Positions 9,574 through 57,379 are shown, counted from the stretch's first letter. The stretch is DNA of 64,000 nucleotides from Flavobacteriales bacterium (GCA_046295395.1 JBKBNH010000002.1:163584-227583), one strand, 5' to 3'. The notes: a model not told the origin generated them from the letters alone. Numbers and translations: made by a program.

Positions 9574-9589
9574 TAAACTGTAATTTACA

Positions 9590-12085: not shown

Positions 12086-12775
12086 GTGATGTTATAGCCC
12101 ATTTTAAAAAGACGACTTCAACGACTGTTCAGAAATATTAATATTTATTGATGCAACAAATGTAAATTTATTTATTTCAGGTTTTAATTCTAAGACCGAA
12201 GAAGTGTTTGATGAAAAAGGTATTACTGTTCAACTGACAGAATTTTGGGAAGAAAATCAAGACGCATACGACTTTGACGATATAATAAAAAGTGTATTAA
12301 AAACAGCTTACAAAGAGAGCGAAAAGACATTATTAAAATCAAAGTATAAAGTGTTCTACCAGACGGAAGACGAAAGTGAATATAAACGACTATGAAAAGA
12401 AAAACGGGCTATAACACGGGTAGCCGTTGCACAACCTCTATAAAACCATAAAAAGTCGAGATTTTTACCCGAAAAACAAGTGGCTTATAATGGCTTGTTT
12501 GAGTTCATATAATAGTGCTTGCAATGAAGCTGCGCTCTTTTCTATTTTAGGGAGTTTGGGTTGCTTCTTTAACTTTTTTGGACTTGAATTTTAGGTATTT
12601 CTTTAGGTTGTAAACCAAAGCACTCATCAACACCTATTTATTGGCTGCCTTTATCCCCTTTGTGTTTACTCTTTTGAGGTTAATAAAATTGGGCGTGGTG
12701 CCAAGCACGGGTTCACTGCTTCGGCAAAGCAACAGAATTTACAAAGGCCTAAATCAATATATTCGGTTACGTTTG

Positions 12776-13528: not shown

Positions 13529-13549
13529 TAAAGTTTGATTTTTTTGTTT

Positions 13550-16500: not shown

Positions 16501-16897
16501 TAGTGGTTAGTTTTTCATTTGTTTCATTTATTTGTTTGAAAGCTTTTAAAGACTCTGAATTATCTATAATTCTGATTATAAAATAATCTTTTTTGTTTTC
16601 GTTAACAACGTTGATATGAAAATCAACCAAGCTTTTATTACCGTTAAAATCCGAAAGCAGTTTTACGCCTTTCCAATTTTTATAATTAATTAGTTGTTCA
16701 GTAATATCTTTAATATCGTTTTCATCTAAATGGATAAGGTTTTTTTCCCACCAGTTTTGGTTAAGTAAATTGTTTTCAGCACAAGCTAATAGCTTACACA
16801 CATAAGGATTAATAGCTAAAATTTTATAAGAATTCGCGTCAATAAGAAAAATAGCATCTGAAGAGGAACCGAAATATAAATTAAATTTAGACAGCAT
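13550..16897 (-). CDS. Multi-PAS/PAC sensor histidine kinase, HisKA_2 type
   Basis: About 890 aa of repeated PAS/PAC-like modules. H-box HHRVKNNLQVISSILNLQSS (HisKA_2). HATPase C-terminus. 22 nt upstream of the LytTR regulator gene. Confidence 0.85.
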   Translation of the reverse strand: MLSKFNLYFGSSSDAIFLIDANSYKILAINPYVCKLLACAENNLLNQNWWEKNLIHLDENDIKDITEQLINYKNWKGVKLLSDFNGNKSLVDFHINVVNENKKDYFIIRIIDNSESLKAFKQINETNEKLTTILNNIDNVVYNITIDDKGNKYIRYVSPYIEQLFGFSVDEFITLSKSNKLIRYYHPNDLSSILEISKSIKHTTKPIKHTYRFLPGNSSNYIYIEETIIPQFDVNKKHIGNFGIARNVTDEAHYKNYLKESEERYRSLFENNITGVFRTRLNGEMVICNTAFANIFGYKSFEEMKSVKSESFYFSKKERDNYVKKLLKERSLFNYEARYKTKAGKEIFTLNNVYIVKNEKGKDTFIEGTLIDITQTKKLKDETIRAELAEEANKKLIKEIENHKKTQQELIKNQEFTKNMINSSLDMIMATDINNKITQISPSSLLAFGYTKEEMINLSATDLYYYYEDFEKVISSITKHGLFLGEITNIRKDKTLFTSYLSATTIKDNKGNIVGYMGISRDISELKKAEEGLIESEKKFRSLFENMYDAILLLDEKNNFIDINQAARKLFELNENVHTGNLYDFVHPNSLEYCLKYSKILRKEGFIQRFTIQITTAKGNNRFVELSSTAVYEEGKYVGSRDVLRDITKIIESEELVKQQSSKIQSFFENTSNMMMFTMNKNMELTSFNSALIDIMKKHINIDIKNGDKILEYLKPFMNNNKFKAMKEIYLTALNGEVQEFQGSINGLYGKPIWLEMFLTPIRVKGQKIIEIAGLIHEITEKKVAEIKLKKSEEYNKAMINALPDLIFRMTADGYYLDVFYKSEDQLAIKPEKFIGGRVTDLINPELGKQFLKNIKKAVKTDEIIPFEYSLKVNGKQGFFEARYVNINNKEVLVIIRDITEQKTAETKLLESLKEKEILLKEVHHRVKNNLQVISSILNLQSSFVTDKDTISILKEGQNRIKSMSFIHEILYQTKNFSEVNFADYLNNLITNLFHTYAINSSNIKLVKDIDNIRVSLDQAIPCGLIVNEIISNALKYAFPNNAKGEIFLSLKQEHNQIQIRIEDNGIGLPKNFDVENSSSLGLQLVYTLIEQLDGTIKVNSKKGTKYLITFAPAS

Positions 16898-22204: not shown

Positions 22205-22756
22205 ATGGCGGTGAACGAAAAATATAAGGACGACAAAGCTCTAGTTGAAGGCTGCGCAAAAGGCGAAAGGTTGGCACAACAAGAGTTGTTTAGTCGTTTT
22301 TCGGGAAAAATGCTCTCGGTTTGTAAGCGATATGCAGAAAATCAAGAAGAGGCAGAAGATATGTTGCAAGAAGGGTTTTTAAAAACATTTGTAAAAATAG
22401 AGTTCTTTAAAAACGAAGGGTCGCTAGAGGGGTGGATTAGAAGAATAATGGTTAATACAGCGTTGGATTTATTAAGAAAAAACAAAAACTTAAAAAACAA
22501 CGTTGACCTAGAAACCACCTATAACCTTTCTTCGAACCAGGAAAATGCCCTTCAAAGCTTAGGGGCGGAGGAGTTGATGAAAATGTTAAATGAAATGCCG
22601 GTGGGTTACAGAACTGTTTTTAACCTGTTTGTAATAGAAGGATACAGCCACAAAGAAATAGGAGAAATGCTGGAAATATCTGAAAACACGTCAAAATCAC
22701 AATTTTCGCGAGCCCGGGCACACTTAAAGAACCTTTTGGAAAAATATTACGTCTAG
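22205..22756 (+). CDS. ECF-type RNA polymerase sigma-70 factor
   Basis: Region 2 (QEGFLKTFVKI...WIRRIMVNTALDLLRK) and region 4 HTH (YRTVFNLFVIEGYSHKEIGEMLEISENTSKSQFSRARAHLK). Confidence 0.85.
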   Translation: MAVNEKYKDDKALVEGCAKGERLAQQELFSRFSGKMLSVCKRYAENQEEAEDMLQEGFLKTFVKIEFFKNEGSLEGWIRRIMVNTALDLLRKNKNLKNNVDLETTYNLSSNQENALQSLGAEELMKMLNEMPVGYRTVFNLFVIEGYSHKEIGEMLEISENTSKSQFSRARAHLKNLLEKYYV

Positions 22757-22763: not shown

Positions 22764-23858
22764 ATGGAAAAATATTACGATATAGAAAATCTTTTTAAAG
22801 AGGCTCTTCAAAATCATGAAAGCCCTGTTAACCCCGATTTATGGGTCAACTTATCGAATTCTTTAAGCGCGGGAGCAACAACAACTTCTGCCGCAGGCGC
22901 AGTCGTTGCAAAATCGTCGTTGATTAAATCCATCATCATGGGAGTTTCGGCAACAGCCGCAGTGGCAACCTCCGCTTATTTTATCGCAACCTCTTTTGCA
23001 GAAAAATCAGCGAATCAGCCGAAGGAGGAAATAGCACAAACAATTTTACCGGAACAAAACACTCCAAACAAAGAGGAAAATATAGCTGAAACAGAAAAAA
23101 TTGAGGAAAACAAAACACAAAAAAATCAGGAAAATAACCCCCTTTTAACGGGCTATCAACCAACTCATAAATCGGCCGCAGAATCTTTTAGCACGCCAAA
23201 ACACAAAAGAGATTTTGGCTACACGCCAAGCAGATTGCCGGATAAAAAACCAGATACCGCCCCTTCTGCAAAAGAAAGCCCAAAGCAGGAAAACGAAAAG
23301 CCACAAACAGAAGCCCAAGCCAACGAAAAGCCGGCCTTACCAAAATCGGTAGACATACACATAAGCAAAAACAAACCGGACGCTTTTGAAGAGGTTGTTA
23401 TAAAAAGTAGCCTGCCACAGGCTGAAAATACGTGGTCCTTGCCTGATGGAACCATAAAAATCGGCCCGGAACTAACCGTTTCCTTCGAAAAATATGGAGC
23501 AAATAAAATACAGCTTATTTCGACTCTTGAAAACGGTGAAGAACTAAACCAAACACGAATTATTCAGGTAAATCCAATATCCTCGATAGGAGAATTGCCC
23601 AATATCATTACGCCAAATAACGATGGCATAAATGATGAATATGTTGTAAGAATATACAATATTCAAGAATGGAGCTTGGTTGTTTTAAACACAAACGGAG
23701 CCGAAACGTTTAAGTCTTTCGATATTAACGATACGTGGAAAGGAACAGACCAAGCCGGAAACAGGCTGCCAATAGGATCATACCAGATAATAATCAAAGC
23801 CATAGGCACTGACGGTAAAATACATAAAGCTTACCAGATAGTTAAGCTCACGTATTAA
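22764..23858 (+). CDS. Anti-sigma-like membrane protein with a C-terminal CHU_C / T9SS type-B domain
   Basis: 8 nt downstream of the ECF sigma gene. About 50-aa cytoplasmic N-terminus. One TM segment (IIMGVSATAAVATSAYFIATSF). A P/E/K/Q-rich linker. C-terminal PNIITPNNDGINDEYVVRIYNIQEWSLVVLNTNG...GSYQIIIKA, matching the gliding-motility-associated C-terminal domain. Confidence 0.55.
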   Translation: MEKYYDIENLFKEALQNHESPVNPDLWVNLSNSLSAGATTTSAAGAVVAKSSLIKSIIMGVSATAAVATSAYFIATSFAEKSANQPKEEIAQTILPEQNTPNKEENIAETEKIEENKTQKNQENNPLLTGYQPTHKSAAESFSTPKHKRDFGYTPSRLPDKKPDTAPSAKESPKQENEKPQTEAQANEKPALPKSVDIHISKNKPDAFEEVVIKSSLPQAENTWSLPDGTIKIGPELTVSFEKYGANKIQLISTLENGEELNQTRIIQVNPISSIGELPNIITPNNDGINDEYVVRIYNIQEWSLVVLNTNGAETFKSFDINDTWKGTDQAGNRLPIGSYQIIIKAIGTDGKIHKAYQIVKLTY

Positions 23859-25906: not shown

Positions 25907-26893
25907 ATGAAAAAAGTATACTTTGTCTTCTTGGCGGCAATTTCCACTTTTAATATATACGCACAGGTAAACCCTTTAACCGAAAAAGAAAAAGAAGAAC
26001 TAGAAAAAAAACTACAAGCACAAGCGTTGATAAATGACTCGCTTGTTTGGAAAAAAGGCGGGCTGTTGGGGTTAAACTTTTCTCAAGTACAATTGGTTAA
26101 TTGGGCTGGAGGAGGAAACAGTACAATGGCTGCGACAGGAATTTTAAACTTATATGCAGGCTATAAGAAAAACAACACAACATGGGACAGTTCGCTCGAC
26201 ATGGCATATGGACTTATTAGCCAAAACAACGCCCCCTTTTTTAAGAGTGACGATCGAATAGAGATTAACTCAAAATATGGCCATAAAGCCTCTGAAAAAC
26301 TATATTATGCAGGACTTTTTAACCTTAGAACACAGTTCGCCCCGGGATATAATACACCAGCCGACACAGTATTCATTTCAAATTTTCTAGTCCCGGCATT
26401 TTCAATTCTGGCTCTTGGCTTTGACTATAAACCAACCAAGCACCTAACGTTTTTCTTGTCTCCGGCAACCATTAAAACAACGGTAGTAAATGACCAAAGA
26501 TTAGCAGATGCCGGAGCATTTGGTGTTCAAAAAGCAGAGATTGACTCGTTTGGAGTAAAAATAGTTGACGGAAAAAAAATCAGACATGAAGCTGGGGCTT
26601 TTTTCAAAATGATGTACAAGAAAGAGGATATAGTTAAGAATGTTAATTTAATGACAAGAATAGACTTGTTTTCTAATTATTTCAACAATCCGCAAAATAT
26701 TGATGTCAATTGGGAGCTTTTAATTTCTATGAAAGTCAATAAATATTTATCAGCGAGTATTTCAACGCTATTAATTTACGATGATGATATACAGATTGCC
26801 GTTGACACAAACAACGACGGAATTCTTGATGGATCAGGCCCTCGCATACAATTTCGAGAGGTTTTGTCTATAGGTCTTTCTTATAAATTCTGA
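25907..26893 (+). CDS. DUF3078-like outer-membrane beta-barrel protein
   Basis: Signal peptide, then W.KGGLLGLNFSQVQLVNWAGGGNS, which I recall as the DUF3078 opening. C-terminal F. Confidence 0.5.
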   Translation: MKKVYFVFLAAISTFNIYAQVNPLTEKEKEELEKKLQAQALINDSLVWKKGGLLGLNFSQVQLVNWAGGGNSTMAATGILNLYAGYKKNNTTWDSSLDMAYGLISQNNAPFFKSDDRIEINSKYGHKASEKLYYAGLFNLRTQFAPGYNTPADTVFISNFLVPAFSILALGFDYKPTKHLTFFLSPATIKTTVVNDQRLADAGAFGVQKAEIDSFGVKIVDGKKIRHEAGAFFKMMYKKEDIVKNVNLMTRIDLFSNYFNNPQNIDVNWELLISMKVNKYLSASISTLLIYDDDIQIAVDTNNDGILDGSGPRIQFREVLSIGLSYKF

Positions 26894-26976: not shown

Positions 26977-27330
26977 TTGAAAATTCTCAAAGCGATATTA
27001 ATAATTTTTTCATTGTTTCTGTTTTCTGAAGCAAACGCCCAGTACAGAGATCCGTCAAAAAATAAAGCAAAAAAAGAAAAAAACCGGCAGGGCTCTCCAG
27101 TTTCTTTCAGAAAGAAAAATGCAGAACGAGCACTCCAAGCAGAATCAGACCCCTTTAAAAGCAAAAAACGAAAATCGAACAAGGATAAAACAAAAGAATC
27201 AGACCCTTTTAAATCTGGAGGAAAAAGAAAGAAGAAAAAGGAAAAAAAATATAAGAACTCATCAAAAGTTAGAAAAACACAAAAAACAAAAGACCCCTTT
27301 AAAAAACCTAAAAAAAACCAAAAAGGATAA
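26977..27330 (+). CDS. Secreted, very basic Lys-rich low-complexity protein with DPFK repeats
   Basis: Signal peptide MKILKAILIIFSLFLFSEANAQ. The mature region is about 45% Lys/Arg, with DPFKS twice and DPFKK once. The DNA shows a gaccc(c)ttttaaa repeat. Confidence 0.45.
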   Translation: MKILKAILIIFSLFLFSEANAQYRDPSKNKAKKEKNRQGSPVSFRKKNAERALQAESDPFKSKKRKSNKDKTKESDPFKSGGKRKKKKEKKYKNSSKVRKTQKTKDPFKKPKKNQKG

Positions 27331-27430
27331 CTTTGTAAAAAATGTATTTGGCACGATTTTTAGCCGAACGTGCTTCAAAAGCAAAATAATTCATAAATTG
27401 CGTAACTTCAGAAGGAAAACAAAAGTATAA

Positions 27431-27955
27431 GTGACCTGTTTAAACAAAATATTGGTTTTAGTCCTATCCTTTGTGGTATTTAACACACGAGGGCAGCAGG
27501 ATTTTAAAACGAATAATAATCTTAAAGCAATTTATGTATACAATTTTACCACACTGGTTGATTGGCCTAAAGAATTTAAGCAAAACGATTTTGTGATAGG
27601 GGTGCTTGGCGATCAGGGTTTAGTGGATGTTTTGACACAAAAATATTCATCAAAAAATGTAGGCGCACAGCCTATAAAAATCAAAGCATACAAAAACGAG
27701 ACAGAAGTTGATCAGTGTCATATCTTGTTTATTGCCAACAGCCAGTCGGCAACCGTAACGAGGCTTTCAAAAAAACTGACCAAATACAGCACACTTATAG
27801 TAGCGGAGTCTGCAGGGGCACTAGAATCAGGGGCTTGTATTAATTTTACAGCAAAAGATAATAAATTAGCGTACGAATTGAGTAAATCAAACACAGAACG
27901 AATCAAATTAATATTGGGCAAAACCATATTAGAATTGGCGGTAAAAGTTAGTTAA
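27431..27955 (+). CDS. YfiR-like periplasmic regulator (DUF4154)
   Basis: GTG start plus a signal peptide. LKAIYVYNFTTLVDWP...CHILFI...LIVAESAGALESGACINF, which matches the YfiR pattern (LKAAFLYNFAKF.EWP ... INF). Confidence 0.65.
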   Translation: MTCLNKILVLVLSFVVFNTRGQQDFKTNNNLKAIYVYNFTTLVDWPKEFKQNDFVIGVLGDQGLVDVLTQKYSSKNVGAQPIKIKAYKNETEVDQCHILFIANSQSATVTRLSKKLTKYSTLIVAESAGALESGACINFTAKDNKLAYELSKSNTERIKLILGKTILELAVKVS

Positions 27956-28854
27956 TGAGCAAAAAGCTTTACATAGCGATCATATTTTGTTTACTGATGG
28001 TTTCAGGAGCTTATGCACAGTCTAAAAACTGGGAAAAAGCACTTAAGGCATATCAGGAAGAAAACTTTGATGACGCCATAAAGTTCAGTGATAATTCTAT
28101 TATGGATGATGCTGAAAGTAAAGACGCTTACACTTGGCATGTTCGTGGATTTATTTACAGAGCCGCACACAAAAAACTTGATGACAGCAGCCCAGCCTCT
28201 AAACTAAGAGAAACATCGATAGAATCCTTTCTCAAAAGTATTGAGCTTGATTCGAATAAAGAATTTGAAATTAAGAACAAAAGCGCAGTAATTAATTTAG
28301 CAAAAACCTATTTTAATGACGCCGTAAGAGCATTAAGCGCTGAAACTTTTGAAGACGCTATTGAATATTATGCCAAATACAAGGACGTTACCCGCCGGGT
28401 AGAGCCTGATTTCAGCTTTAAACAAACCGATATAGACTTTAACAACACCCTTGGCGCAGTATACCAAAACATATATGAAAATGATAAGGGCGCAAACCAA
28501 AATTTTATGCAAAAAGCCATTGATGTATATAAGACCACTATAGAAATAGACTCGCTTAACTATAATGCGAACTACAATATAGGGGTTTTATATTACAATC
28601 AGGGTGTAGATTTAATTTTGTCTATTGACCCGGAAGCACCACTTCCTATTGTAATAGAAACTCAAGAAATGTGTGCAGAGTTATTTATACGGTCTTTACC
28701 ATATATGAAAAGAGCGTATAATTTAAAACCAACAAATAGAGAAACCATCATTGGTCTTGCGGGCATTTATTTTAACTTGAATGATAACGAAAAGTCTAAA
28801 TTTTTTAGCGACCTTTTGAAGGAGGTAGAAGATAACGACTCACCAAACAGATAG
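27955..28854 (+). CDS. Secreted hypothetical protein (possibly helical, TPR-like)
   Basis: Signal peptide MSKKLYIAIIFCLLMVSGAYAQ. 1-nt overlap with the upstream gene. No confident family. Confidence 0.5.
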   Translation: MSKKLYIAIIFCLLMVSGAYAQSKNWEKALKAYQEENFDDAIKFSDNSIMDDAESKDAYTWHVRGFIYRAAHKKLDDSSPASKLRETSIESFLKSIELDSNKEFEIKNKSAVINLAKTYFNDAVRALSAETFEDAIEYYAKYKDVTRRVEPDFSFKQTDIDFNNTLGAVYQNIYENDKGANQNFMQKAIDVYKTTIEIDSLNYNANYNIGVLYYNQGVDLILSIDPEAPLPIVIETQEMCAELFIRSLPYMKRAYNLKPTNRETIIGLAGIYFNLNDNEKSKFFSDLLKEVEDNDSPNR

Positions 28855-28866
28855 GAAAAAAACAAA

Positions 28867-30720
28867 ATGAGGTTTACTATAGGCAGACGTATAGGTCTTG
28901 GTTTCGGAATAGTGATATTTCTCATTTTGATTATTTTCTATTTTACCTTCAATACCCTTCGTCAGGGCTCAGATACGTTAAACGAAAGTATCGAAAAAAA
29001 CAAACGATTTAATGATGTAACTCAACCAACTATAGAGTTGCTCATTCGTTTGAAAGAAACCATTTTTGAGACTAAAACACTTATTAATAAGTGGGCAACA
29101 GAACAAACGCGCGAAGACGATCAAAGCAAAATCAGACTTAAGAAAATCACCACAGAAATAGTTCCCTCAACAGTTAGACGATTAGAATCGCTTGCCTCGG
29201 AATGGTCTTCAGAAGAAGACAAGGGTCGGCTACAGCAGAACATCTTCAAAAACATAGAAGAGCTTTTTTCCATGCACGAAACTTACGTTACTTCTATTTT
29301 GGTAGACTTCGATAGTTATAACGACCCATCAGCCTTGTTTTTGGCCAGGCCGGCAGTGCAGCCCGATGGAGAAATTAGCAAAAAAACCCAGCAAATTACA
29401 AACGAGCTTGATGATTTCATCAACAGAAAAAACGCCGAAGCGGCAAGTCAAAAAGATGAAATGAATAAATCTTTTGAGGTAACCGAAACAGGATTTGCTT
29501 GGTTGAAACTTTTAGTTGTTTTTTTTGGTTTAGCCTTATTTATAGGCACGGTTGTGATAGCCACCCTAACCTCTAGGTCTATTGTGGGGCCGGTTAACGA
29601 ACTTAAGTTAATACTTTTTGATTTAGGGAAAGGAATTTTCCCAAAGACAAAAATGAAAGCAAGAAATGACGAAATCGGAGAAATGACTCTTGCGCTGGAT
29701 AACTTAGTTGAAGGCCTGAAAAGAACAACCGACTTTTCTAGAGAGGTTGGTTCCGGCAACTTCGAATACGACTATCAACCACTTTCAGAAGAAGATGTTT
29801 TGGGACATGCATTGCTAAAAATGCGTGATGAACTAGCTGAAAACGAAAGAGTTCTTGAGCAAAAAGTGGTAGAAAGAACCGAAGAGGTCGTTCGGCAGAA
29901 AGAAGAAATCGAAAACCAACGACAAAAACTGGAAGAGCTATACAAAGACGTAACAGATAGCATTAGGTATGCAAAACGCCTTCAGGACTCTATTCTTCCA
30001 CCAGATTCTTTTGTAAAACAATTATTGCCGGAATCTTTCGTTTTATTCAGACCAAAAGACATCGTAAGCGGCGATTTTTACTGGATGGAAGAAACAAATA
30101 ACAAAATACTTTTTTCGGCGGTAGATTGCACCGGACATGGTGTTCCTGGAGCATTTATGAGTATAGTTGGAGCAAATGCTTTAAATCAGGCGGTTGCTGC
30201 TTCAAAACTAGATACTCCCGGATTAATTTTAGACGAATTACACCGGCTGTCTTCAGAAGCGCTGAATAAAACTTCAGATGAAAAATCTGTGAGGGACGGT
30301 ATGGACTTAGCCATGTGCGCTCTTTCTAAAGATTACAAAACATTAGAATATGCCGGAGCAAATAATCCGCTTTACATATTAAGAAAAGATGAAATTATAC
30401 AGACTAAAGCGGATAAATTTCCAATAGGAGGCTTCGAAGTAGGCCAGCATAACTATGCTACCCACACATTTGACCTGCAGGATGGCGACATGATATACAT
30501 ATTTTCTGATGGTTACGCAGATCAGTTTGGAGGCTCAAAAGGTAAAAAATTCATGTATCGCCAGTTCAGGGAGGTGCTTATGGAAATAAGACATTTACCC
30601 ATGAACAAACAAAGGCAAGAGCTTGAGCGAATCATGGAAGAATGGAAAGGAGTCTACGAACAGGTGGATGATGTGTTGGTAATAGGAGTGAAAATTAACT
30701 TAAATCAAACTAAACCATGA
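28867..30720 (+). CDS. Membrane HAMP-domain PP2C (SpoIIE/RsbU-type) Ser/Thr phosphatase
   Basis: N-terminal TM. About 180-aa extracytoplasmic region. Second TM. HAMP. Coiled coil. PP2C motifs (SGDFYWMEE...FSAVDCTGHGVPGAFMS...DGYADQFGG). Confidence 0.8.
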   Translation: MRFTIGRRIGLGFGIVIFLILIIFYFTFNTLRQGSDTLNESIEKNKRFNDVTQPTIELLIRLKETIFETKTLINKWATEQTREDDQSKIRLKKITTEIVPSTVRRLESLASEWSSEEDKGRLQQNIFKNIEELFSMHETYVTSILVDFDSYNDPSALFLARPAVQPDGEISKKTQQITNELDDFINRKNAEAASQKDEMNKSFEVTETGFAWLKLLVVFFGLALFIGTVVIATLTSRSIVGPVNELKLILFDLGKGIFPKTKMKARNDEIGEMTLALDNLVEGLKRTTDFSREVGSGNFEYDYQPLSEEDVLGHALLKMRDELAENERVLEQKVVERTEEVVRQKEEIENQRQKLEELYKDVTDSIRYAKRLQDSILPPDSFVKQLLPESFVLFRPKDIVSGDFYWMEETNNKILFSAVDCTGHGVPGAFMSIVGANALNQAVAASKLDTPGLILDELHRLSSEALNKTSDEKSVRDGMDLAMCALSKDYKTLEYAGANNPLYILRKDEIIQTKADKFPIGGFEVGQHNYATHTFDLQDGDMIYIFSDGYADQFGGSKGKKFMYRQFREVLMEIRHLPMNKQRQELERIMEEWKGVYEQVDDVLVIGVKINLNQTKP

Positions 30721-31304
30721 ATGAATGGTGGATTGAACTTTCCGGCACAGAAAAAGTATTTTGGATAATAGCTATTCCGGCTACTATCATTTTTCTTTTT
30801 GTTTTGGTTATCAACCTAATTGCCGGCATCGATAGCGGAGACCTCGACTCCTCTGACGGGTCTTTTGATGCAGACATGGCCGATGGCATAGGGTTTCAGT
30901 TCATTACATTTAAAACACTCCTAGCCTTTTTTACCATTTTTGCTTGGACAGGTATCGCGTGCCTTGATGCTCAATTTTCAACCACAGTATCTGTTTTAAT
31001 AGCAACCGGAGCAGGAACGGTAATGATGGCGCTTACCGCTTGGTTTTATTATTTTATGGCTAAAATGTCTGAGAGCGGAACACTTAAAATAAACAAGGCC
31101 ATTGGCGCAATAGGCGAGGTATATTTAACCATACCAGCCAATGCCCAAACGGTAGGAAAAGTACAAATAAAACTCCAAGGCTCACTCCATGAATTAGACG
31201 CCATAACAGACGATGAAAAAGATATAACCAGAGGCAAATTAGTAAGAGTAACCGATGTTGTAAACAACACCATATTAAAAGTAACCCTTAACACAAACAC
31301 ATAA
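30717..31304 (+). CDS. NfeD-family membrane protein (flotillin partner)
   Basis: Three TM segments plus a C-terminal OB-fold-like domain. 4-nt overlap with the upstream gene. Immediately precedes the SPFH gene, the usual NfeD position. Confidence 0.65.
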   Translation: MNEWWIELSGTEKVFWIIAIPATIIFLFVLVINLIAGIDSGDLDSSDGSFDADMADGIGFQFITFKTLLAFFTIFAWTGIACLDAQFSTTVSVLIATGAGTVMMALTAWFYYFMAKMSESGTLKINKAIGAIGEVYLTIPANAQTVGKVQIKLQGSLHELDAITDDEKDITRGKLVRVTDVVNNTILKVTLNTNT

Positions 31305-31309
31305 AAATC

Positions 31310-32692
31310 ATGTTTGAAGACTTAAATTACATTACCATTCTCATCGCCATTGTGGTGGGATTTTTCTTCATTTTTGTATTAACCTTCATAAGAAGATATA
31401 GAAGGTGTCCTTCGGACAAAATTTTGGTTGTTTATGGCAAAGTAGGCGGGGGCTCAGCTAAGTGTATTCACGGAGGAGCGGCATTTATATGGCCGCTTAT
31501 ACAAGATTATTCCTATTTGGATTTAACACCGATTTCTATCGAGGTGAACCTTGCTAATGCACTCTCCAAACAAAACATTCGGGTTGATGTACCCTCTCGT
31601 TTTACCGTAGGTATTTCCACAGAGCCTGTAATTATGAACAATGCTGCAGAGCGTTTGTTGGGATTAAAACAACAGCAAATCTACGACATAGCCAGAGATA
31701 TCATTTTTGGTCAGTTGAGGTTAGTTGTTGCCACCATGGATATAGAAGAAATTAATAGCAATAGGGATAAATTTTTGGCAAACGTGTCTGCCAACGTGGA
31801 GGCAGAGCTTAAAAAAATAGGCCTCCGCCTAATTAACGTAAACGTAACCGACATTAAAGATGAATCCGGCTATATCGAAGCATTAGGCAAGGAGGCTGCA
31901 GCTAAAGCCATCAACGATGCCAGACAGAGCGTAGCAGAGAAAAACAGAGACGGCTCCGTGGGAGAGGCCAATGCCGTACAAGAGCAGCGGGTAAAGGTAG
32001 CCCAAGCTAACGCTACAGCAGTAGAAGGAGAGAACCTCTCGAAAATATTAATTGCTAATTCTGATGCTTTAAGACGAGAAAAGGAGGCCGAAGCTGAAAA
32101 AATAGCCATTGCCGCTGAAAAAGTACAAACAGCCAAAGCCCTCGAAGAGTCTTATGCAGCAGAAAGAGAAGCAGAAACAGCCAGGGCACAAAGAGACAAA
32201 GCCTCTCAGGTCGCAGACGTTATAGTTCCTTCTCAAATCGAAAAAGAAAGAATAGAAATACAAGCCGAAGCGCAGGCAGAGCAAATAAGAAGAATTGCAA
32301 AAGGAGAGGCCGACGCAATCTTATTTAGAAAACAAGCCGAAGCACAGGGATTACTCGAAATTCTTACTAAACAAGCCGAAGGTCTGGACCGAATTGTGAA
32401 AGCCGCAGGAAATAATTCCAGAGATGCCGTCCTATTGCTTATAGCAGATAAGTTGCCAGAAATTATTAAAACACAAGCCGAAGCAATTAAAAACATAAAA
32501 ATTGATAAAGTAACCGTGTGGGAAGGAGGAACAAATGCAGATGGCAAGACATCTACAGCAAACTTTATCTCAGGTTTATACAAATCTGTTCCGCCGCTTG
32601 ACGACATGTTTAAAATGGCAGGAATGGAATTGCCATCGTATTTAAAAGGAAAAACAGAAGACCCAGCAAACAATAATGACCAAGCCGAATAA
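31310..32692 (+). CDS. Flotillin-like SPFH (band 7) domain protein
   Basis: N-terminal TM. SPFH domain (KILVVYGKVGGG...NVNVTDIKDESGYIEALGKEAAAKA). Long Ala/Glu-rich coiled coil. Confidence 0.85.
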   Translation: MFEDLNYITILIAIVVGFFFIFVLTFIRRYRRCPSDKILVVYGKVGGGSAKCIHGGAAFIWPLIQDYSYLDLTPISIEVNLANALSKQNIRVDVPSRFTVGISTEPVIMNNAAERLLGLKQQQIYDIARDIIFGQLRLVVATMDIEEINSNRDKFLANVSANVEAELKKIGLRLINVNVTDIKDESGYIEALGKEAAAKAINDARQSVAEKNRDGSVGEANAVQEQRVKVAQANATAVEGENLSKILIANSDALRREKEAEAEKIAIAAEKVQTAKALEESYAAEREAETARAQRDKASQVADVIVPSQIEKERIEIQAEAQAEQIRRIAKGEADAILFRKQAEAQGLLEILTKQAEGLDRIVKAAGNNSRDAVLLLIADKLPEIIKTQAEAIKNIKIDKVTVWEGGTNADGKTSTANFISGLYKSVPPLDDMFKMAGMELPSYLKGKTEDPANNNDQAE

Positions 32693-35600
32693 AATAAATA
32701 GTTCAATAAAAAGAGCCTTGATTAATCTAATCAGGGCTTTTGTTTTTATTGGCCTAGCATGCGGACAAGCACAGCACAGTATTAAGTTCGACAACATCTC
32801 CCTGAATGAAGGGCTCTCTCAGAGCACTATTTCTGCAATAATTCAGGACTCGCAAGGCTACATGTGGTTTGGCACACAAGACGGATTAAATCGTTACGAC
32901 GGATACAGATTCAAAATATATAAACACGACCCAGATATTTCAACCTCCATCTCCGGAAATTTTATAAAATGTATAATGGAAGACGGAGACTATCTTTGGA
33001 TAGGAACCGAAACAGGGGGGGTAAATCGTTATGAAAAAAGCAGAGATGTTTTCCGAACATTTGATCATATAGACCAATTAAGACACTCTGCTGTTACCGC
33101 TCTTGCCAAAGATAAAAGCGGTAAGATATGGATAGGGACAGATGATAATGGATTGATAAGTTTTTCTCCAAAAGAAGGAAGAGTAGAACATTTTAACGAA
33201 AACAACGGGCTAATGTCCAACAACATTAAGGGGCTTAAATTTTTACCCGAAGGATTTTTGTTAATCGGCCAGCTAGATGGCCAATTACAATATTTGAATG
33301 TAAAGGAAAACAAACTTAAAACTGTAAAGGACAACAAAATATACGGCTCAAATTTTTATTCGTTCGAAACTTCTAAAAATGGGCAAACCCTAGTCGGAAC
33401 AGATAGAGGAGTAATTACTTTGCAAATAGAAAATAACGAACCGACCATAAAAAAAAGAATCTATCCGGTAGAACAAGCCTCTTCTCTTTTACTTCAGAAC
33501 GATTCAACCCTTTGGGCAGCCACAGAAGGGTTTGGCTTATTTAAAATTGATCTGAACAAATCCAAAACAAATAATTACAGATATGACCCGTTGAATAGAA
33601 AGAGTATTGCCGAAAACCTCATTTTCAGCGTATTTCAAGACAGGAGCGGCTGTATTTGGATAGGCACAAACAACGGGCTAAGTAAGTTCGACCCTATTAA
33701 GCAATTTTTCAACCACATAGCACCCGAGCCCGACAATCCTAAAGGACTAAACGACAAAACAATCTGGGCAATAGCTAAAGACAAACGAAACCGGCTTTGG
33801 GTGGCCACGAGCAAGGGGCTTAGCCGAGTAGATGAAAACTCTTTGGTTGCTGTAAATTATCCATTTGTTGGCAACAACCCCAACTTGCCCAACAACAACA
33901 ATGTATACAGTGTTCTACCAGAAGATGATTTTCTGTGGCTTGGAACGGTAGATGGATTTTATAAACTCAATTTTTCAAACGACAAGCTAGAAAAGGTAAA
34001 CCTTGGAGAGTTTGAGCAAACCGCAGACAAAAGAATTTACCACATAACAAAAGACAAAAATGGCAACATATGGCTTGGCGCTAAAGAAGGTCTATGTTTT
34101 TATAACGTAAAAGACAGAACAACGGCACATTTTAAGAGCAGCCCATCAAAAAACAAATCCCTTCCGGGAAGAACGGTAAGAGCCGTTCATGTGGACAGCA
34201 AGGGAAACTTGTGGGTCGGAACCGAAGGCGGAGGTCTGGGGTTTGTTTCAAGCGATCAGATTACAACACAGCCAAAAGAACTTTCTTTTGATGTGTATAG
34301 CGCAAGTTCGGCAGACTATAAAGCCTTAAACAACAATATTATAACAACAATTTTTGAAGACCAAGACGGCACGCTTTGGCTTGGCACATACGGCGGCGGA
34401 TTAAATGCGTTAAACCCAAAAACAGGAAAATTCAGGCGTTACACGGAAAAAGAAGGCCTGTCAAACAATGTTGTTTATGCCATTCTTTCCGAGAACGAAA
34501 ATGCACTTTGGATGAGCACCAACTTTGGTTTGTCAAGGCTAGAAAAAGCAACCGGAGCCTTTAAAGTTTTTCTAGAAAAAGACGGCCTTCAGAGTAACGA
34601 GTTTAATATAGGCGCCGCATATAGAGCGAAAGATGGAAAATTATATTTTGGTGGAATAAACGGGTTAAATAGCTTTTATTCGACACAAATAACAGAAAAC
34701 AGAATTCCACCGGAAGTATTAATTACCGGAATTTTATTGTTTAATCAACCTATAAAAATAGGCCCGTCATCGCCACTTCAAACGGACGTTTCATTTGCGC
34801 AAGAAATTGCTCTAAAACACAGACAAAATAATCTTACAATAGAATACGCAGCACTACACTTTTCTAATTCGGCAAACAATAAATACAAGTTTATTTTAGA
34901 GGGATACGAGGAACAAATGAATTATGTGAGTGATGTAAAAAGAGCACATTACAGTAATCTTCCTCCCGGAGAATACACGTTCAAAGTGTTCGGGTCTAAT
35001 AGCGACGGTATTTGGAGCCAATCTCCGGCAAAACTGCGGATAGTAATACTTCCTCCCTATTATGCAACTTGGTGGTTTAGAGGAATTTTAGGCATTGTCT
35101 TGCTTTTAGTTGTTTATACCTTTTACCAGCTAAGGATAAGAACCATCCGTCTTCAAAAACAAAAACTATCCGAACTAGTTGAAAAACGAACAGCAACCAT
35201 CAGAAAACAAAAAGAAATGATGGAAGAACAAAAACTACAGCTTGAACTGGAAAAAGAAAAAAGCGACAAACTGCTAATAAATATTCTTCCGGCAGAAACA
35301 GCAGAGGAACTAAAAAATCACGGAAAAGCAACAACAAGAACATATCGCTTAGTCACAGTAATGTTTACAGACATTATAGGGTTTACCCAAATTGCCGAAA
35401 AAATGAATCCGGTAGATCTCGTAAAAAGACTAGATGAGTATTTCAGGGAGTTTGACAAAATAATAGAGCGAAATAAAATTGAAAAAATAAAAACAATTGG
35501 TGATTCATATATGGCCGCAGGCGGAGTGCCAATAAGAAATAAAGAAAACCCCGTGTATACAGTTTTGGCGGCACTTCAGATTCAAAAGTTAATGCGGGAT

Positions 35601-36572
35601 AAAAAAGAAGAAGCGATAACCAAAGGAGAAGCAGACCCTTGGGATCTCAGGGTGGGCATTCATACAGGAGATGTAATTGCAGGAGTAATCGGAGAAAAGC
35701 GAATTGCATACGACATTTGGGGCAACACAGTAAACGTGGCAAGTCGGATGGAAAGCAGCGGAATGCTCGGAAAGGTAAACATATCGGGGGCAACCTACGA
35801 ACACATAAAACCCTATTTTGATGTAGTATACAGGGGTAAGATTATGGCCAAAAATAAAGGCCATATCGACATGTACTTTGTTGAGCGAATTAAGCCGGGG
35901 CTTTCGGAAGACGAGGGGGGCACTGTTCCAAACGCTAAGTTTTGGGAATACCTGAATTTACATGTGTTCAGCAGTATAAACTACCACAAGGCAGAAAGGC
36001 ATATTATGAAAATATTGGTAGAAAAATTATCACCAAATCTTCATTATCATGGCATTCATCATACGGCAGATGTTGTTCAGGCTGTTGAAAGAATTGCCAT
36101 AATGGAAGGGGTGGTAGACGAACATATATTTGTTTTGAAATCAGCAGCAACATACCATGACGCCGGTTTTGTAGAACAATACGAACACAACGAACCTGTA
36201 GGGGCAAAAATGGCCGAAGAAATCTTGCCTCTTTATGGATACACAAAAGAACAAATCCAACAGGTAAAAGAGTTAATTTATTCAACCATTATACCCCATA
36301 ACCCCAAAAATAAACTGGAAGAAATTATCTGCGATGCAGATTTAGACTATCTGGGAAGAGATGATTTTCACGATATAGCCGATTCTTTAAGGCGTGAATT
36401 GAGAGATCATGGAAAATTAAACAGTGATAGACTTTGGGATGAGATTCAGGTGAAATTTTTAACCGCACATAAATACTTTACAGACTCTGCAAAAAGACTC
36501 AGAGATCCAAAAAAACAAAAGCATCTGGAAGAAATAAAACAACGCTTAATAGAAAACAAGTACAACGATTAG
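32676..36572 (+). CDS. Fusion of a periplasmic two-component-regulator propeller/Y_Y_Y sensor with a class III adenylyl cyclase and a C-terminal HD domain
   Basis: Signal peptide. Repeated WIGTxxGLxxYD propeller blades. Y_Y_Y region. TM (WWFRGILGIVLLLVVYTFYQL). Coiled coil. CHD domain (VTVMFTDIIGFT...KIKTIGDSYMAAGG...YDIWGNTVNVASRMESSG) with Lys/Asp at the adenine-specifying positions. HD motif set H..HH, YHDAGF, CDADLDYLGRDDF. 17-nt overlap with the flotillin gene. Confidence 0.85.
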   Translation: MTKPNKINSSIKRALINLIRAFVFIGLACGQAQHSIKFDNISLNEGLSQSTISAIIQDSQGYMWFGTQDGLNRYDGYRFKIYKHDPDISTSISGNFIKCIMEDGDYLWIGTETGGVNRYEKSRDVFRTFDHIDQLRHSAVTALAKDKSGKIWIGTDDNGLISFSPKEGRVEHFNENNGLMSNNIKGLKFLPEGFLLIGQLDGQLQYLNVKENKLKTVKDNKIYGSNFYSFETSKNGQTLVGTDRGVITLQIENNEPTIKKRIYPVEQASSLLLQNDSTLWAATEGFGLFKIDLNKSKTNNYRYDPLNRKSIAENLIFSVFQDRSGCIWIGTNNGLSKFDPIKQFFNHIAPEPDNPKGLNDKTIWAIAKDKRNRLWVATSKGLSRVDENSLVAVNYPFVGNNPNLPNNNNVYSVLPEDDFLWLGTVDGFYKLNFSNDKLEKVNLGEFEQTADKRIYHITKDKNGNIWLGAKEGLCFYNVKDRTTAHFKSSPSKNKSLPGRTVRAVHVDSKGNLWVGTEGGGLGFVSSDQITTQPKELSFDVYSASSADYKALNNNIITTIFEDQDGTLWLGTYGGGLNALNPKTGKFRRYTEKEGLSNNVVYAILSENENALWMSTNFGLSRLEKATGAFKVFLEKDGLQSNEFNIGAAYRAKDGKLYFGGINGLNSFYSTQITENRIPPEVLITGILLFNQPIKIGPSSPLQTDVSFAQEIALKHRQNNLTIEYAALHFSNSANNKYKFILEGYEEQMNYVSDVKRAHYSNLPPGEYTFKVFGSNSDGIWSQSPAKLRIVILPPYYATWWFRGILGIVLLLVVYTFYQLRIRTIRLQKQKLSELVEKRTATIRKQKEMMEEQKLQLELEKEKSDKLLINILPAETAEELKNHGKATTRTYRLVTVMFTDIIGFTQIAEKMNPVDLVKRLDEYFREFDKIIERNKIEKIKTIGDSYMAAGGVPIRNKENPVYTVLAALQIQKLMRDKKEEAITKGEADPWDLRVGIHTGDVIAGVIGEKRIAYDIWGNTVNVASRMESSGMLGKVNISGATYEHIKPYFDVVYRGKIMAKNKGHIDMYFVERIKPGLSEDEGGTVPNAKFWEYLNLHVFSSINYHKAERHIMKILVEKLSPNLHYHGIHHTADVVQAVERIAIMEGVVDEHIFVLKSAATYHDAGFVEQYEHNEPVGAKMAEEILPLYGYTKEQIQQVKELIYSTIIPHNPKNKLEEIICDADLDYLGRDDFHDIADSLRRELRDHGKLNSDRLWDEIQVKFLTAHKYFTDSAKRLRDPKKQKHLEEIKQRLIENKYND

Positions 36573-36577: not shown

Positions 36578-36603
36578 AAAAAAGCCTTTATAGGCTTTTT
36601 ATT
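36578..36603 (+). terminator. Rho-independent terminator of the signalling operon
   Basis: aaaAAGCCTttatAGGCTTttt followed by a T-rich run, 6 nt after the cyclase stop. Confidence 0.55.
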
Positions 36604-41553: not shown

Positions 41554-44502
41554 ATGCAAAGAGTTCTCGGACTATTTTTTTTACTTTTTCTAGTAAAACA
41601 TACACAAAGTCAAACCATTAAGTCTGTTCATCAGGAGCAAGCAGAAGAATATACTTCTTTGGGTTTTGACGATATGTATTACGAGTCCAATAATCAGGCG
41701 GCTACGATACAAAAATCAGCAAGAAATTGCTCTGCAAACAAAGTTGTATACGGCTGGCACCCTTACTGGAGTAATGGATTGCAAATAAATTACGATTGGA
41801 ACCTATTATCGCATTTGTGTTATTTTTCTTACGAAGTAGATGCCAATACGGGAAACGCCATTAACACCTATAATTTTGCCACTACGCCGGTTGTGACTAC
41901 TGCGCTAAACAATGGAGTGAAGGTACACCTGTGTGTTACGCTTTTTTCAAATCATACTACTTTTTTTGGTAATCCCACAGCTCGACAAACGCTTATTACA
42001 AACCTGATTAATATGATACAGGCAAGGGGTGCGCATGGGGTAAACATTGACTTTGAAAGCATGGCATCGTCTCAGTCGGCAAATTACACGGCATTTATGA
42101 TTGACCTATGCAACCAAATGCACGCTGCCATTCCGGGTTCAGAAGTAACTACCGCACTTCACGCAGTAGATTGGAGCGGTTTTTACGACATGGCTGTTTT
42201 AAATAATTATGTAGACTACTTCATGATTATGGGCTACGATTATTATTGGAGTGGAAGCAATCCCGCCGGGCCTAATGATCCGCTGTTTCATTTTGGCAGC
42301 ACCTACGATTACAATTTATCTAAGTCTACTACTTACTACCAGCATCAAGGGGCATCTTTATCAAAACTAGTGATGGGGCTTCCTTACTATGGCAGAGACT
42401 GGCCGGTGAGCTCCTTTTCGCTGCCCGCGCCAACCACGGGCACAGGTGTTTCAAGAACCTACAAGGTAGTGAAGGACAATACCAGCGGTAATTTTTCACC
42501 GACAAATCGAAACTACGAATCGGCAAGCAGAAGCACCTATTACAACTATACGGCCTCGGGAGTAATGAGGCAATGCTTCATTTCTGAAGAAAATGATTTG
42601 CGTGAAAGAATGGATTTTATAAACAAAAGAGGGCTTGCCGGAGTGGGAGTCTGGGCCTTGGGCTACGATGATGGTTACACCGAACTTTGGGATGCAATTG
42701 CCGAGTATTTTTCAGATTGTAGTGAAACGCCTTGTTCGGGAGTTTTAACAGATATAGGCGGAGGGCCCTTGAAAAATTATTACAACAACGAAAACTATAC
42801 ATTTACGCTTTCTCCTCCCGGCGCACAAAGTATCACAGTAAATTTTTCTTCGTTTAGCACGGAGGCAAATTACGATTTTCTCCATATTTATGATGGGCCA
42901 TCTACAGCTTCGCCTCAAATTCCCGGCAGTCCTTTTCACGGAACAAATAGCCCTGGCTCATTCACAAGTTCTTCAGGGCATTTAACCTTCAGATTTATTT
43001 CAGACAATGCCACTGTAAGCCCTGGGTGGAATGCAACTTATACTTGCCAGCAAGACAACATCCCGCCCACTACGGCGGTTTTAGCACCAAACGGATGGGT
43101 TACCGAGGATTTTACGGTAAACTTTACCGATGCGGATAATGTTGGGGGCTCGGGGGTAGACAAGAGTTTTTATCAAGTGTTGGAATTTGAGGGCACAGAA
43201 TGGCGCGCAAATACACAAAGAGGGTTCTTTAGCGACAACTTCGATCAAGCGGCGATACATCCCGATTGGACTAGTGTCACGGGAACTTGGCAAATTACAA
43301 ATGGCTATTTACACCAGTCAAATCAAGGTGTCGGAAACACCAACATTTATGCTTACCTAAAGCAAGATTTATCCAACCGTTATCTATACCACTGGGCCGG
43401 AAAAATGGATGGAACAGGCTCTAACAGAAGAGCGGGCTTTCATTTTTTCTGCGATAATCCAACTTTGCCTAATAGGGGAAACTCATACTTTGTATGGTTC
43501 AGGCTCGATAATAACCGCATACAAATATACAAGGTAGTAAACGACAATTTTGGGACACCGGTTTTGGATATACCCTACTCATTTTCTAATCAGTGGACCG
43601 ACTATAAAGTAACCTACGACCGCATTTTGGGTTCAATGAATGTGTATGTAAACGATATTTTGGCCGCTCAGTGGACTGACGGAGCTCCCTATCAAACGGG
43701 AGATTATATTTCTTTTAGAAGCGGCGATTGTGATTTCATGGCCAACAACTTAAAAGTATACCGAACAAGATTTCCATCGGTAAATGTTACCGTGGGGCTC
43801 GGGTCTTCTAACGAGATTCGCTATGAAAACATTAATCCGACTCAGCCCGCCGGACGAATAAAATCTATTGTTCAGGATGTTGCCGGAAACCTTTCCGTGG
43901 TTGCATCACAAGATGTTAATGTAGACTGGACACCTCCGGTGATGAGCTTTATACACGATGGGTTATCACAAGACGTGGACACCATATTTGCTCCCGATGC
44001 AGCAGAAGCAAACTGGAGTTTTTTAGACACCAACAGTCATGTGGCCGAATACTTTTTTTCAATGGGTACTCAGCCTTTGTTGGACGATGTTTACCCATAC
44101 ACATCAAATATGCTATCTACATCGGCTTCAGTTAGCTCAGGAATTCTTCAATCAGGAACTTGGTACTATTTCAACATAATTGCCGAAAACAATGCCGGGC
44201 TCAGAGATACTTTAAGCTCAAATGGATTCAGGTTTGTTTCACTTTTAGGTGTTGGCGAATTGGTGTTAACCGAAATTCCCCGATTATTTCCTAATCCTGC
44301 GCAGACATCTGCCACGGTAGGCTCGAAAAAAAATATTTCAGTAATTACTGTTTATGATGTGCTGGGCAGACAGGTTTTTTCTTCAACACCCAATGGAACC
44401 TCGGCACATCTTCCAGTGTATTTGTGGGCAGACGGAATTTATGTGGTAAGAATATTTTCAGAAGGCAGAGAGATTGACTTAAAACTGATTAAAAAACAGT
44501 AA
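41554..44502 (+). CDS. GH18-like glycoside hydrolase with CUB-like and lectin-like domains, secreted by T9SS (type-A CTD)
   Basis: Signal peptide. GH18 (beta/alpha)8 region whose catalytic motif is HGVNIDFE in place of the canonical DGxDxDWE. CUB-like domain (YDFLHIYDGPS...GWNATYTC). Por_Secre_tail C-terminus (LFPNPAQTSATV...VYDVLGRQVF...GIYVVRI). Confidence 0.8.
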   Translation: MQRVLGLFFLLFLVKHTQSQTIKSVHQEQAEEYTSLGFDDMYYESNNQAATIQKSARNCSANKVVYGWHPYWSNGLQINYDWNLLSHLCYFSYEVDANTGNAINTYNFATTPVVTTALNNGVKVHLCVTLFSNHTTFFGNPTARQTLITNLINMIQARGAHGVNIDFESMASSQSANYTAFMIDLCNQMHAAIPGSEVTTALHAVDWSGFYDMAVLNNYVDYFMIMGYDYYWSGSNPAGPNDPLFHFGSTYDYNLSKSTTYYQHQGASLSKLVMGLPYYGRDWPVSSFSLPAPTTGTGVSRTYKVVKDNTSGNFSPTNRNYESASRSTYYNYTASGVMRQCFISEENDLRERMDFINKRGLAGVGVWALGYDDGYTELWDAIAEYFSDCSETPCSGVLTDIGGGPLKNYYNNENYTFTLSPPGAQSITVNFSSFSTEANYDFLHIYDGPSTASPQIPGSPFHGTNSPGSFTSSSGHLTFRFISDNATVSPGWNATYTCQQDNIPPTTAVLAPNGWVTEDFTVNFTDADNVGGSGVDKSFYQVLEFEGTEWRANTQRGFFSDNFDQAAIHPDWTSVTGTWQITNGYLHQSNQGVGNTNIYAYLKQDLSNRYLYHWAGKMDGTGSNRRAGFHFFCDNPTLPNRGNSYFVWFRLDNNRIQIYKVVNDNFGTPVLDIPYSFSNQWTDYKVTYDRILGSMNVYVNDILAAQWTDGAPYQTGDYISFRSGDCDFMANNLKVYRTRFPSVNVTVGLGSSNEIRYENINPTQPAGRIKSIVQDVAGNLSVVASQDVNVDWTPPVMSFIHDGLSQDVDTIFAPDAAEANWSFLDTNSHVAEYFFSMGTQPLLDDVYPYTSNMLSTSASVSSGILQSGTWYYFNIIAENNAGLRDTLSSNGFRFVSLLGVGELVLTEIPRLFPNPAQTSATVGSKKNISVITVYDVLGRQVFSSTPNGTSAHLPVYLWADGIYVVRIFSEGREIDLKLIKKQ

Positions 44503-48002: not shown

Positions 48003-48015
48003 TTGAATTGGCAAT

Positions 48016-57370: not shown

Positions 57371-57379
57371 AGCAGGACT

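Follow-up and report, generated by a model that had tools for sequence, protein, structure and literature searches.

Modular makeup suggested for a six-gene flavobacterial cluster encoding a conserved DUF4154-TPR-HAMP-PP2C sensor trio, an NfeD-flotillin pair and a sensor adenylyl cyclase

A 64,000-nucleotide stretch of a Flavobacteriales bacterium genome (GCA_046295395.1, JBKBNH010000002.1:163584-227583; "the window" in what follows, with positions counted from its first letter) contains six tightly spaced, co-directional open reading frames (ORFs), g1 to g6, at 27431-36572, preceded by a smaller one, g0. The account of this cluster toward which we lean, with some reserve, is that it combines three separable modules: a sensor module (g0 to g3), an NfeD-flotillin cassette (g4-g5), and a sensor adenylyl cyclase (g6). 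Of what is new here, the conserved DUF4154-TPR-HAMP-PP2C gene trio (TPR, tetratricopeptide repeat), together with a Lys-rich companion, stands on the firmest ground; among the individual proteins, the sensor cyclase, which carries a phosphodiesterase (PDE)-like HD domain, is the most intriguing. A first-pass annotation, made from the sequence alone, knew of no described system combining these genes, and searches of the accessible literature likewise turned up no account of the trio, of a link between DUF4154 and PP2C proteins, or of the six-gene operon.

The six genes are all on the + strand, with gaps of -1, +12, -4, +5 and -17 nt that reproduce the first-pass values exactly; the stop of g1 and the start of g2 overlap as TAATG, and g3 and g4 overlap as ATGA. 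They encode a periplasmic DUF4154 (YfiR/HmsC-like; Pfam PF13689) protein (g1, 27431-27955), a secreted TPR protein (g2, 27955-28854), a HAMP, coiled-coil and PP2C (SpoIIE) phosphatase with two transmembrane (TM) segments (g3, 28867-30720), a short NfeD-family membrane protein assigned by fold match (g4, 30717-31304), a flotillin-type SPFH protein (FloT/YqiK-like; Pfam Band_7; g5, 31310-32692), and a sensor class III adenylyl cyclase with a PDE-like HD domain (Pfam and fold matches; g6, 32676-36572). The earlier domain calls stand for DUF4154, HAMP-PP2C, flotillin and propeller-cyclase-HD, and for NfeD by fold but not by the Pfam threshold; g2, previously a secreted unknown, can now be named. 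Gene content, folds, catalytic competence (at the level of residues) and synteny statistics were established directly. Two sets of loci were used: one anchored on PP2C, from an alignment scan of species-representative genomes plus look-ups of database homologues, giving at least 29 full-length PP2C orthologues, and one anchored on flotillin, from a metagenome scan, with 80 loci listed and flanks of up to 10 kb. Locus counts throughout are of loci listed (numbered with an L), and trees are neighbor-joining trees from simple distances.

The g1-g2-g3 trio is the invariant core of the cluster, kept in all informative loci: g1 and g2 lie directly 5' of g3 in each of the 27 PP2C-orthologue loci with enough upstream DNA, and in 14 informative loci the trio is found alone, with neither the cassette nor the cyclase. 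No conserved gene 3' of the trio that might encode a substrate for the phosphatase recurs outside the clade with the cyclase, the sole downstream gene common to six trio loci being a convergent gene of ~290 aa. The DUF4154 match of g1 (E 1.3e-30) covers residues 30-170, behind a visible N-terminal signal peptide; among NCBIfam models, it reaches 108.7 bits for YfiR_like_TOL0243, where the cutoff is 125, and 23 bits for YfiR proper (NF053586), where it is 85, and a sequence search of g1 against Protein Data Bank (PDB) chains gave no match. In g2, TPR_11 (33.4 bits) and TPR_19 (30.8 bits) both exceed their Pfam cutoffs, and the signal peptide ends in SGAYA, followed by Q at the cleavage site.

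The phosphatase itself retains its catalytic residues. The SpoIIE match of g3 (65.5 bits, E 7.8e-18) places the PP2C domain at ~30100-30696, and the best NCBIfam match is SiaA, at 229 bits over residues 284-610, a region comprising the HAMP, coiled coil and PP2C domain only (cutoff 700); HAMP is also present in the precomputed matches of most g3 orthologues. Across 20 orthologues the metal-binding Asp motifs SGDFY, DCTGHG, DGMD, SDG and DD are invariant, as are the residues D403, D420, D477/D480, D548 and D601/D602. The cytoplasmic half is almost invariant in the same set, and the periplasmic loop of ~180 aa is poorly conserved.

A fourth gene belongs to this unit. The first-pass annotation had placed a secreted, polylysine-like protein immediately upstream, and an ORF at 26977-27330 (g0, + strand) indeed encodes a secreted, disordered, Lys/Arg-rich protein, recognized from its translation: behind the signal peptide the mature protein starts QYRDPS, and it contains three D-P-F repeats, is extremely rich in Lys and Arg, and has no Pfam match, even in a relaxed scan. 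Comparable ORFs lie directly 5' of g1 in 10 loci, the window included (the others being L001, 7945-8364; L163, 7964-8380; L165, 8065-8487; L164, 7829-8434; L023, 6906-8261; and L002, L008, L010 and L011); the nine outside the window combine a signal peptide with 24-40% Lys/Arg and several D-[P/S/A]-F motifs, and four of them also have the mature start QYRDP. Many Flavobacteriales have such a gene in this position. The ~450-aa protein of L023 has nine exact D[PS]F motifs plus additional D-A-F repeats. The gene just before g0 in relatives encodes ferritin; in the window this neighborhood has been rearranged, with the ferritin gene at 8625-9134 and g0 still beside g1-g6. Because it is conserved in 10 loci and has stayed with g1 despite the rearranged upstream neighborhood, g0 belongs to the unit and is no bystander. 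Its product could be a ligand of the adjacent TPR protein or a binder of envelope polyanions.

The fuller upstream arrangement in relatives (L002, 409-8005; L164, 1-7811) consists of genes for a PAS histidine kinase, a LytTR regulator, RNase R, in some cases a CHU_C protein, and ferritin, directly preceding g0. The window has the PAS kinase-to-ferritin block inverted at 8625-16897, displaced ~18 kb upstream, with MscS, DUF3078, alkaline phosphatase, extracytoplasmic function (ECF) sigma factor and other genes between it and g0.

The other enzyme of the cluster, g6, combines several domains. From the N-terminus there are a signal peptide or anchor, a double beta-propeller (six Reg_prop matches), a Y_Y_Y domain (34860-35051; 56.4 bits), a TM segment, a signaling helix, a class III adenylyl cyclase domain (35340-35885; Pfam Guanylate_cyc, 174.7 bits, E 1.9e-51) and a PDE-like HD domain (~35976-36569). 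Aligned with the mammalian C1 and C2 domains, the cyclase domain keeps the two metal-binding Asp, the Lys and Asp that specify adenine, and the Asn and Arg acting in the transition state, and these six catalytic residues are conserved in 22 orthologues. The first-pass annotation had named decoding of either enzyme as inactive as a result that would count against it; judged by sequence, neither the PP2C nor the cyclase is a pseudo-enzyme.

The HD domain gives no meaningful Pfam match in g6 of the window, relaxed scan included, and is recognized in other ways. No part of the family is better conserved than the last 200 residues, in which the YHxxxH, HD and DADLD motifs are invariant. This ~200-aa region has the H...HD...D metal motif and a confirmed HD fold; the closest solved folds include class I cyclic nucleotide monophosphate (cNMP) phosphodiesterases, with the bacterial YpgQ/2pq7 hydrolases equally close. 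The same HD subfamily occurs as stand-alone proteins (~200 aa) and on other architectures, in 3,492 representative clusters at E <=1e-3; the g6 family itself comprises more than 120 sequence clusters. There are also many Bacteroidota paralogues in which the Reg_prop/Y_Y_Y sensor is fused directly to PP2C (L050, 7493-10849; L061, 2918-6379; L026-L028 and others), showing that the sensors and outputs of g3 and g6 are interchangeable modules.

Conservation of the gene order in relatives, proposed earlier as a check, was found: the complete six-gene order is present in six listed genomes, namely the window, Parvicella tangerina (L001), L002, L163, L168 and L169. Since it thus recurs in five other genomes, in which PP2C identity to the window is 54-89% and cyclase identity falls as low as 46% (L168, L169), the arrangement is more than chance. 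The cyclase gene adjoins the trio in 10 of 25 informative loci: the six just named and four "trio-plus-cyclase" loci without g4-g5 (L003, L010, L165, L170); in L011 it lies 6.5 kb from the trio. Distant cyclase orthologues (41-43% identity) stand alone, and L166 and L167 have the cyclase without a DUF4154 gene. The PP2C and cyclase trees agree, grouping L001, L163 and L165 with 94% and 98% bootstrap support, respectively, and L003 with L168 at 69% and 66%. In both trees, six-gene operons are interspersed with trio-plus-cyclase operons, as in the group of the window, L002 and L170 (82% support), and because flotillin-bearing and flotillin-free operons are mixed in this way, the cassette has been gained or lost within the operon several times. 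The cyclase gene, for its part, has been inherited together with the g0-g3 module in one Flavobacteriales clade, so that both probably feed one response.

Could the adjacency instead be incidental, with three unrelated gene sets that share no pathway and are kept together simply by vertical inheritance in one clade? Each of the modules occurs by itself in numerous genomes, the downstream neighbors of the trio vary widely, L164 has lost the cyclase linkage within the same clade, and there is a terminator-like hairpin inside the cluster (discussed below), all of which would fit. However, the PP2C-cyclase pairing recurs in 10 loci with differing flanks on both sides, the trees of the two proteins are congruent, and the gap after PP2C is short and terminator-free in all six-gene and trio-plus-cyclase loci. 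Varied flanks, congruent trees and short gaps together point to selection for co-expression over long divergence, and mere incidental neighborhood seems unlikely.

The NfeD-flotillin genes behave differently from the trio and the cyclase. The g4 protein is 100% identical to ACK4K0_02205, which places the window in a Flavobacteriales metagenome-assembled genome. No family matches g4 above threshold: the Pfam NfeD match (14.2 bits, E 0.053) falls under the cutoff of 29.1 bits, at the expected C-terminal position, and the top match of a g4 profile against PDB sequences is YuaF (E 0.11). An AlphaFold model based on 25 homologues (predicted local distance difference test score, pLDDT, 81.6) has three TM helices and a C-terminal OB-like beta-barrel, and its top four Foldseek matches are all NfeD proteins: YuaF (2k14, E 1.8e-6), YbbJ (8z5g), PH1510-C (3wwv) and MTH693 (2k5h). 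By its modeled fold only, then, g4 is an NfeD protein. In g5, Band_7 matches at E 1.4e-29, an Ala/Glu-rich C-terminal half with a long coiled-coil region is visible, and NCBIfam FloT scores 164 bits over the N-terminal half, under its cutoff of 700; the two are a bona fide NfeD-flotillin pair. The 80 metagenomic flotillin orthologues are 59-78% identical to g5, no more distant from it than the flotillins of the other six-gene loci. The flotillin gene has g4 directly 5' of it in 74 of these 80 stand-alone loci, and g1, g2, g3 and g6 are absent from all 80 within the flanks covered. Given that none of the listed flotillin loci holds any sensor gene, the NfeD-flotillin pair is an autonomous cassette of two genes, usually found by itself. 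In the flotillin tree, one stand-alone copy falls into a clade (72% support) with five of the six flotillins embedded in operons, and the flotillin of L168 groups weakly (54%) with stand-alone ones; a single old insertion and later relocations are compatible with this, with a second, independent insertion possible.

These distributions bear on the more ambitious proposal of the first-pass annotation, in which an NfeD-flotillin microdomain or cage would assemble the PP2C phosphatase and the cyclase, with the DUF4154 protein as their common gatekeeper and the six genes working as one unit. There is precedent for a flotillin-dependent sensor: the activity of the Bacillus subtilis sensor kinase KinC requires flotillin. 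Within the locus, the six-gene order extends over six genomes down to 54% PP2C and 46% cyclase identity, g3 and g4 are translationally coupled through their ATGA overlap, the slot of the cassette is constant (PP2C on one side, cyclase on the other), and the weak placement of the L168 flotillin hints that this slot was entered a second time; SPFH-NfeD cages, moreover, are an established structure (8z5g). Since the linkage persists across deep divergence, a raft organizing both sensors retains some probability. Set against it are the complete absence of sensor genes from the 80 loci of close flotillin orthologues; the four cassette-free trio-plus-cyclase operons nested among six-gene operons with 82-98% support, which imply that the sensors function without an embedded flotillin; the 14 loci in which the trio has neither cassette nor cyclase, and the cyclase orthologues that are likewise alone; a terminator-like hairpin between flotillin and cyclase; and the co-variation of DUF4154 with PP2C only. 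On this evidence the raft proposal lies somewhere between unlikely and very unlikely. Its most elaborate form, in which a flotillin-NfeD cage, perhaps recruited repeatedly, corrals a YfiR-gated PP2C and a bifunctional cyclase/phosphodiesterase while the phosphatase tunes cyclic AMP (cAMP), we consider quite unlikely.

The transcription signals are all pattern matches only. A candidate Bacteroidota-type -7 box, TAACTTTG (TAnnTTTG; 27328-27335, + strand), is a consensus match lying in the 100-nt gap between g0 and g1, 95 nt 5' of the g1 start; the same consensus occurs at 31 sites on the + strand of the window, five of them within 24.9-37.1 kb. A sigma-70 promoter scan (41 sites against 34.5 expected) was uninformative, that promoter type being the wrong one for Bacteroidota. 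At the far end, the closing terminator of the first-pass annotation was found again as a bidirectional, 9-bp hairpin, AAAAAGCCTTTATAGGCTTTTT, with T runs on both strands (36579-36600). The cluster also contains an internal terminator-like hairpin (32711-32751, + strand), with a 14-bp stem at 32711-32741 that is followed by GTTTTT, and a GTTTTTATTG tail: it lies 19 nt past the flotillin stop, within the signal-peptide codons of g6.

A hairpin and T run follow the flotillin stop in five of the six six-gene loci: the window, L002 (13846-13885), L001 (~14291-14318), L163 (~14060-14095) and L168 (~9916-9950). In the first three it overlaps the cyclase signal-peptide codons, and its stem is conserved in L002 despite diverged flanks; behind the PP2C stop, neither the six-gene nor the trio-plus-cyclase loci have such a hairpin. 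The internal hairpin looks like the cassette's own terminator, perhaps a relic that now attenuates transcription ahead of the cyclase. The tight spacing on which the first-pass annotation based a single transcript stands, but because of this recurrent hairpin one uniform g1-g6 transcript appears doubtful.

How might such a composite locus work? All of the protein-protein contacts, the phosphatase substrate and the transcripts in the following scheme are inferred. By analogy with YfiBNR, and given the invariant g1-g2-g3 linkage, the DUF4154 protein would bind the fast-evolving periplasmic loop of g3, repressing or otherwise setting the phosphatase activity, while the TPR protein, possibly via the D-x-F repeats of g0, would control the amount of free DUF4154 protein. 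The HAMP and coiled coil would relay the signal to the PP2C domain, which may dephosphorylate a cytoplasmic phospho-Ser/Thr switch protein (SiaC/STAS-like) encoded outside the cluster. From its domains, g6 would be a second, independent periplasmic sensor driving an adenine-specific class III cyclase, and its C-terminal HD domain, if its candidate activity is real, would degrade the product, making the cAMP output self-limiting. In some lineages g4-g5 would have come to lie between PP2C and cyclase, to be read from the promoter of the g0-g3 module (g3 and g4 overlapping as ATGA) while retaining their own terminator, which would attenuate read-through into g6. Since the YfiR-like gene is always linked to the HAMP-PP2C gene, its product as periplasmic gatekeeper of the HAMP-PP2C sensor is a reasonable inference. 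The broader earlier idea that it gates both sensors fares less well: linked to PP2C in 27 of 27 loci, it does not track the cyclase (as L166 and L167 illustrate), and following PP2C only, it offers no evidence for gating both.

Another possibility is that the phosphatase controls the cyclase/HD enzyme, directly or via a switch protein encoded elsewhere, much as SiaA acts on SiaD, so that the DUF4154/TPR signal would end in cAMP. SiaA is the closest match to the cytoplasmic part of g3 (at the 229 bits given above), PP2C and cyclase are adjacent and co-inherited, and an RsbW-type kinase is encoded in the same genome region. This kinase (57380-57799), the HATPase_c_2 member of a DUF4175 - HATPase_c_2 - YbeY cluster (56936-61264, - strand), was found by the same window scan as an ECF sigma factor (22205-22756); in L164 the corresponding cluster (11907-16256) lies immediately 3' of PP2C, with the kinase two genes downstream. 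The RsbW-type Ser kinase is a candidate partner of the g3 phosphatase. Control of the cyclase by the phosphatase is nevertheless very unlikely: the cluster has no SiaB or SiaC homologue, the cyclase is not near most trio loci, its own large periplasmic sensor suggests autonomous control, and Pfam finds no recognizable phospho-acceptor domain in g6.

Several points weigh against the composite account and the signaling scheme attached to it. The locus counts are biased toward relatives of the window by similarity. The flotillin linkage may be selected, not incidental, since the six-gene order reaches down to 46% cyclase identity and most embedded flotillins fall in one clade with 72% support. 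The g1 protein fails the YfiR equivalog score, far under the cutoff, so the YfiR analogy holds at the superfamily level only; mature g1 has two Cys, one kept in 70% and the other in 7% of 27 orthologues, and no conserved pair. A relaxed Pfam scan assigned the g3 periplasmic loop to no known family, and the loop does not resemble the YfiN PAS domain. Pfam searches across the entire window for STAS, SiaC or cNMP-binding genes found none, and the only candidate PP2C partner there, the RsbW-type kinase, is ~21 kb away.

Scans of the wider window yielded little else that bears on the cluster. GC content is 0.35-0.40 across it, inside the range of the flanks, and this evenness rules out a horizontal-transfer island; antisense ORFs of 83-157 aa were also ruled out as genes, lying wholly inside conserved coding regions. 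An Rfam scan of the window found a single tRNA only, and no riboswitch or leader RNA. About 10 kb 3' of the cyclase, at 47142-49029, is a pair of genes for MbnP and a di-heme peroxidase (CCP_MauG); the same pair occurs in L167 (19959-21757), ~6 kb 3' of a stand-alone cyclase orthologue, which may be loose neighborhood conservation or coincidence. In five ORFs of the region (25907-26893, 26977-27330, 27431-27955, 27955-28854 and 32676-36572) the predicted signal-peptide cleavage is associated with Gln (with a slash marking the site, AQ/V.., A/QYRDP, G/QQ, A/QSK and A/QHS); Gln after the cleavage site is a pattern reported for Bacteroidota exported proteins. Elsewhere, at 41554-44502, the window encodes a chitinase-like GH18 protein that bears a CUB domain and a C-terminal sorting domain of the type IX secretion system (T9SS); further T9SS cargo tails are at 3613-4113 and 22764-23858.

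If these readings are correct, the trio would be a widespread Bacteroidota module that extends YfiR-type periplasmic gatekeeping from cyclic di-GMP cyclases to Ser/Thr phosphatase outputs. The g6 family would couple a periplasmic domain of the glycan-sensor type to an active adenylyl cyclase and a PDE-like HD domain, making it a candidate for self-limiting cAMP production in a phylum in which, to our knowledge, cAMP signaling is poorly studied. The variable presence of NfeD-flotillin in a conserved sensor operon would amount to a natural experiment on whether flotillins of bacteria have specific clients; should the cage proposal prove true, the locus would be a raft-organized hub for envelope-to-cAMP signaling. 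Direct tests are feasible, as Parvicella tangerina, which holds all six genes, is cultured.

Among known systems, the sensor module is most reminiscent of YfiBNR/HmsCDE of Pseudomonas, E. coli and Yersinia, in which a periplasmic DUF4154 protein is likewise combined with a two-TM HAMP enzyme and a third, secreted accessory, and YfiBNR follows a logic of periplasmic repression and sequestration (PMC4655355). The output here is a PP2C phosphatase, whereas there it is a GGDEF cyclase, and neither a GGDEF nor an OmpA domain, as expected of YfiN and YfiB partners, is found in the cluster by Pfam or NCBIfam. The accessories differ too, being a soluble TPR protein and a Lys-rich disordered protein rather than the OmpA-like lipoprotein YfiB. 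YfiR has two conserved Cys pairs, C71-C110 and C145-C152 (PMC4655355), both missing from g1, which reaches 23 bits against the 85 of the YfiR model, and the g3 loop has no recognizable PAS domain. SiaABCD of Pseudomonas aeruginosa offers a second parallel: SiaA, which controls a nucleotide cyclase through SiaC (PMC7647112), resembles g3 in its two TM segments, HAMP, coiled coil and PP2C domain, and a nucleotide cyclase is encoded adjacent in both. However, g3 is far under the SiaA equivalog cutoff, the adjacent cyclase is of class III with a sensor of its own, and Pfam and NCBIfam reveal no SiaB kinase, SiaC switch protein or SiaD/GGDEF protein in the cluster.

The cassette has the organization of known NfeD-flotillin pairs (B. 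subtilis YuaF-FloT, E. coli YqiJ-YqiK and QmcA-YbbJ), with an NfeD gene directly 5' of an SPFH gene and a YuaF/YbbJ fold, but is embedded here in a sensor operon, while in all 80 other listed Bacteroidota loci it stands alone. The input half of g6, a periplasmic Reg_prop double propeller and Y_Y_Y domain followed by a single TM segment, is that of the Bacteroides hybrid two-component sensors (BT4663 type), whose histidine kinase, receiver and AraC outputs are replaced here by adenylyl cyclase and HD domains. For that output half the comparison leads outside the bacteria. In CAPE of Marchantia and other streptophytes an adenylyl cyclase is combined with a phosphodiesterase (PMC8115329); the eukaryotic protein has a bona fide class I PDE at its N-terminus, whereas the HD domain of g6 is C-terminal, ~200 aa long and of candidate activity. 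With a class III adenylyl cyclase and a class I PDE/HD-fold domain in one polypeptide, CAPE is the nearest precedent for g6.

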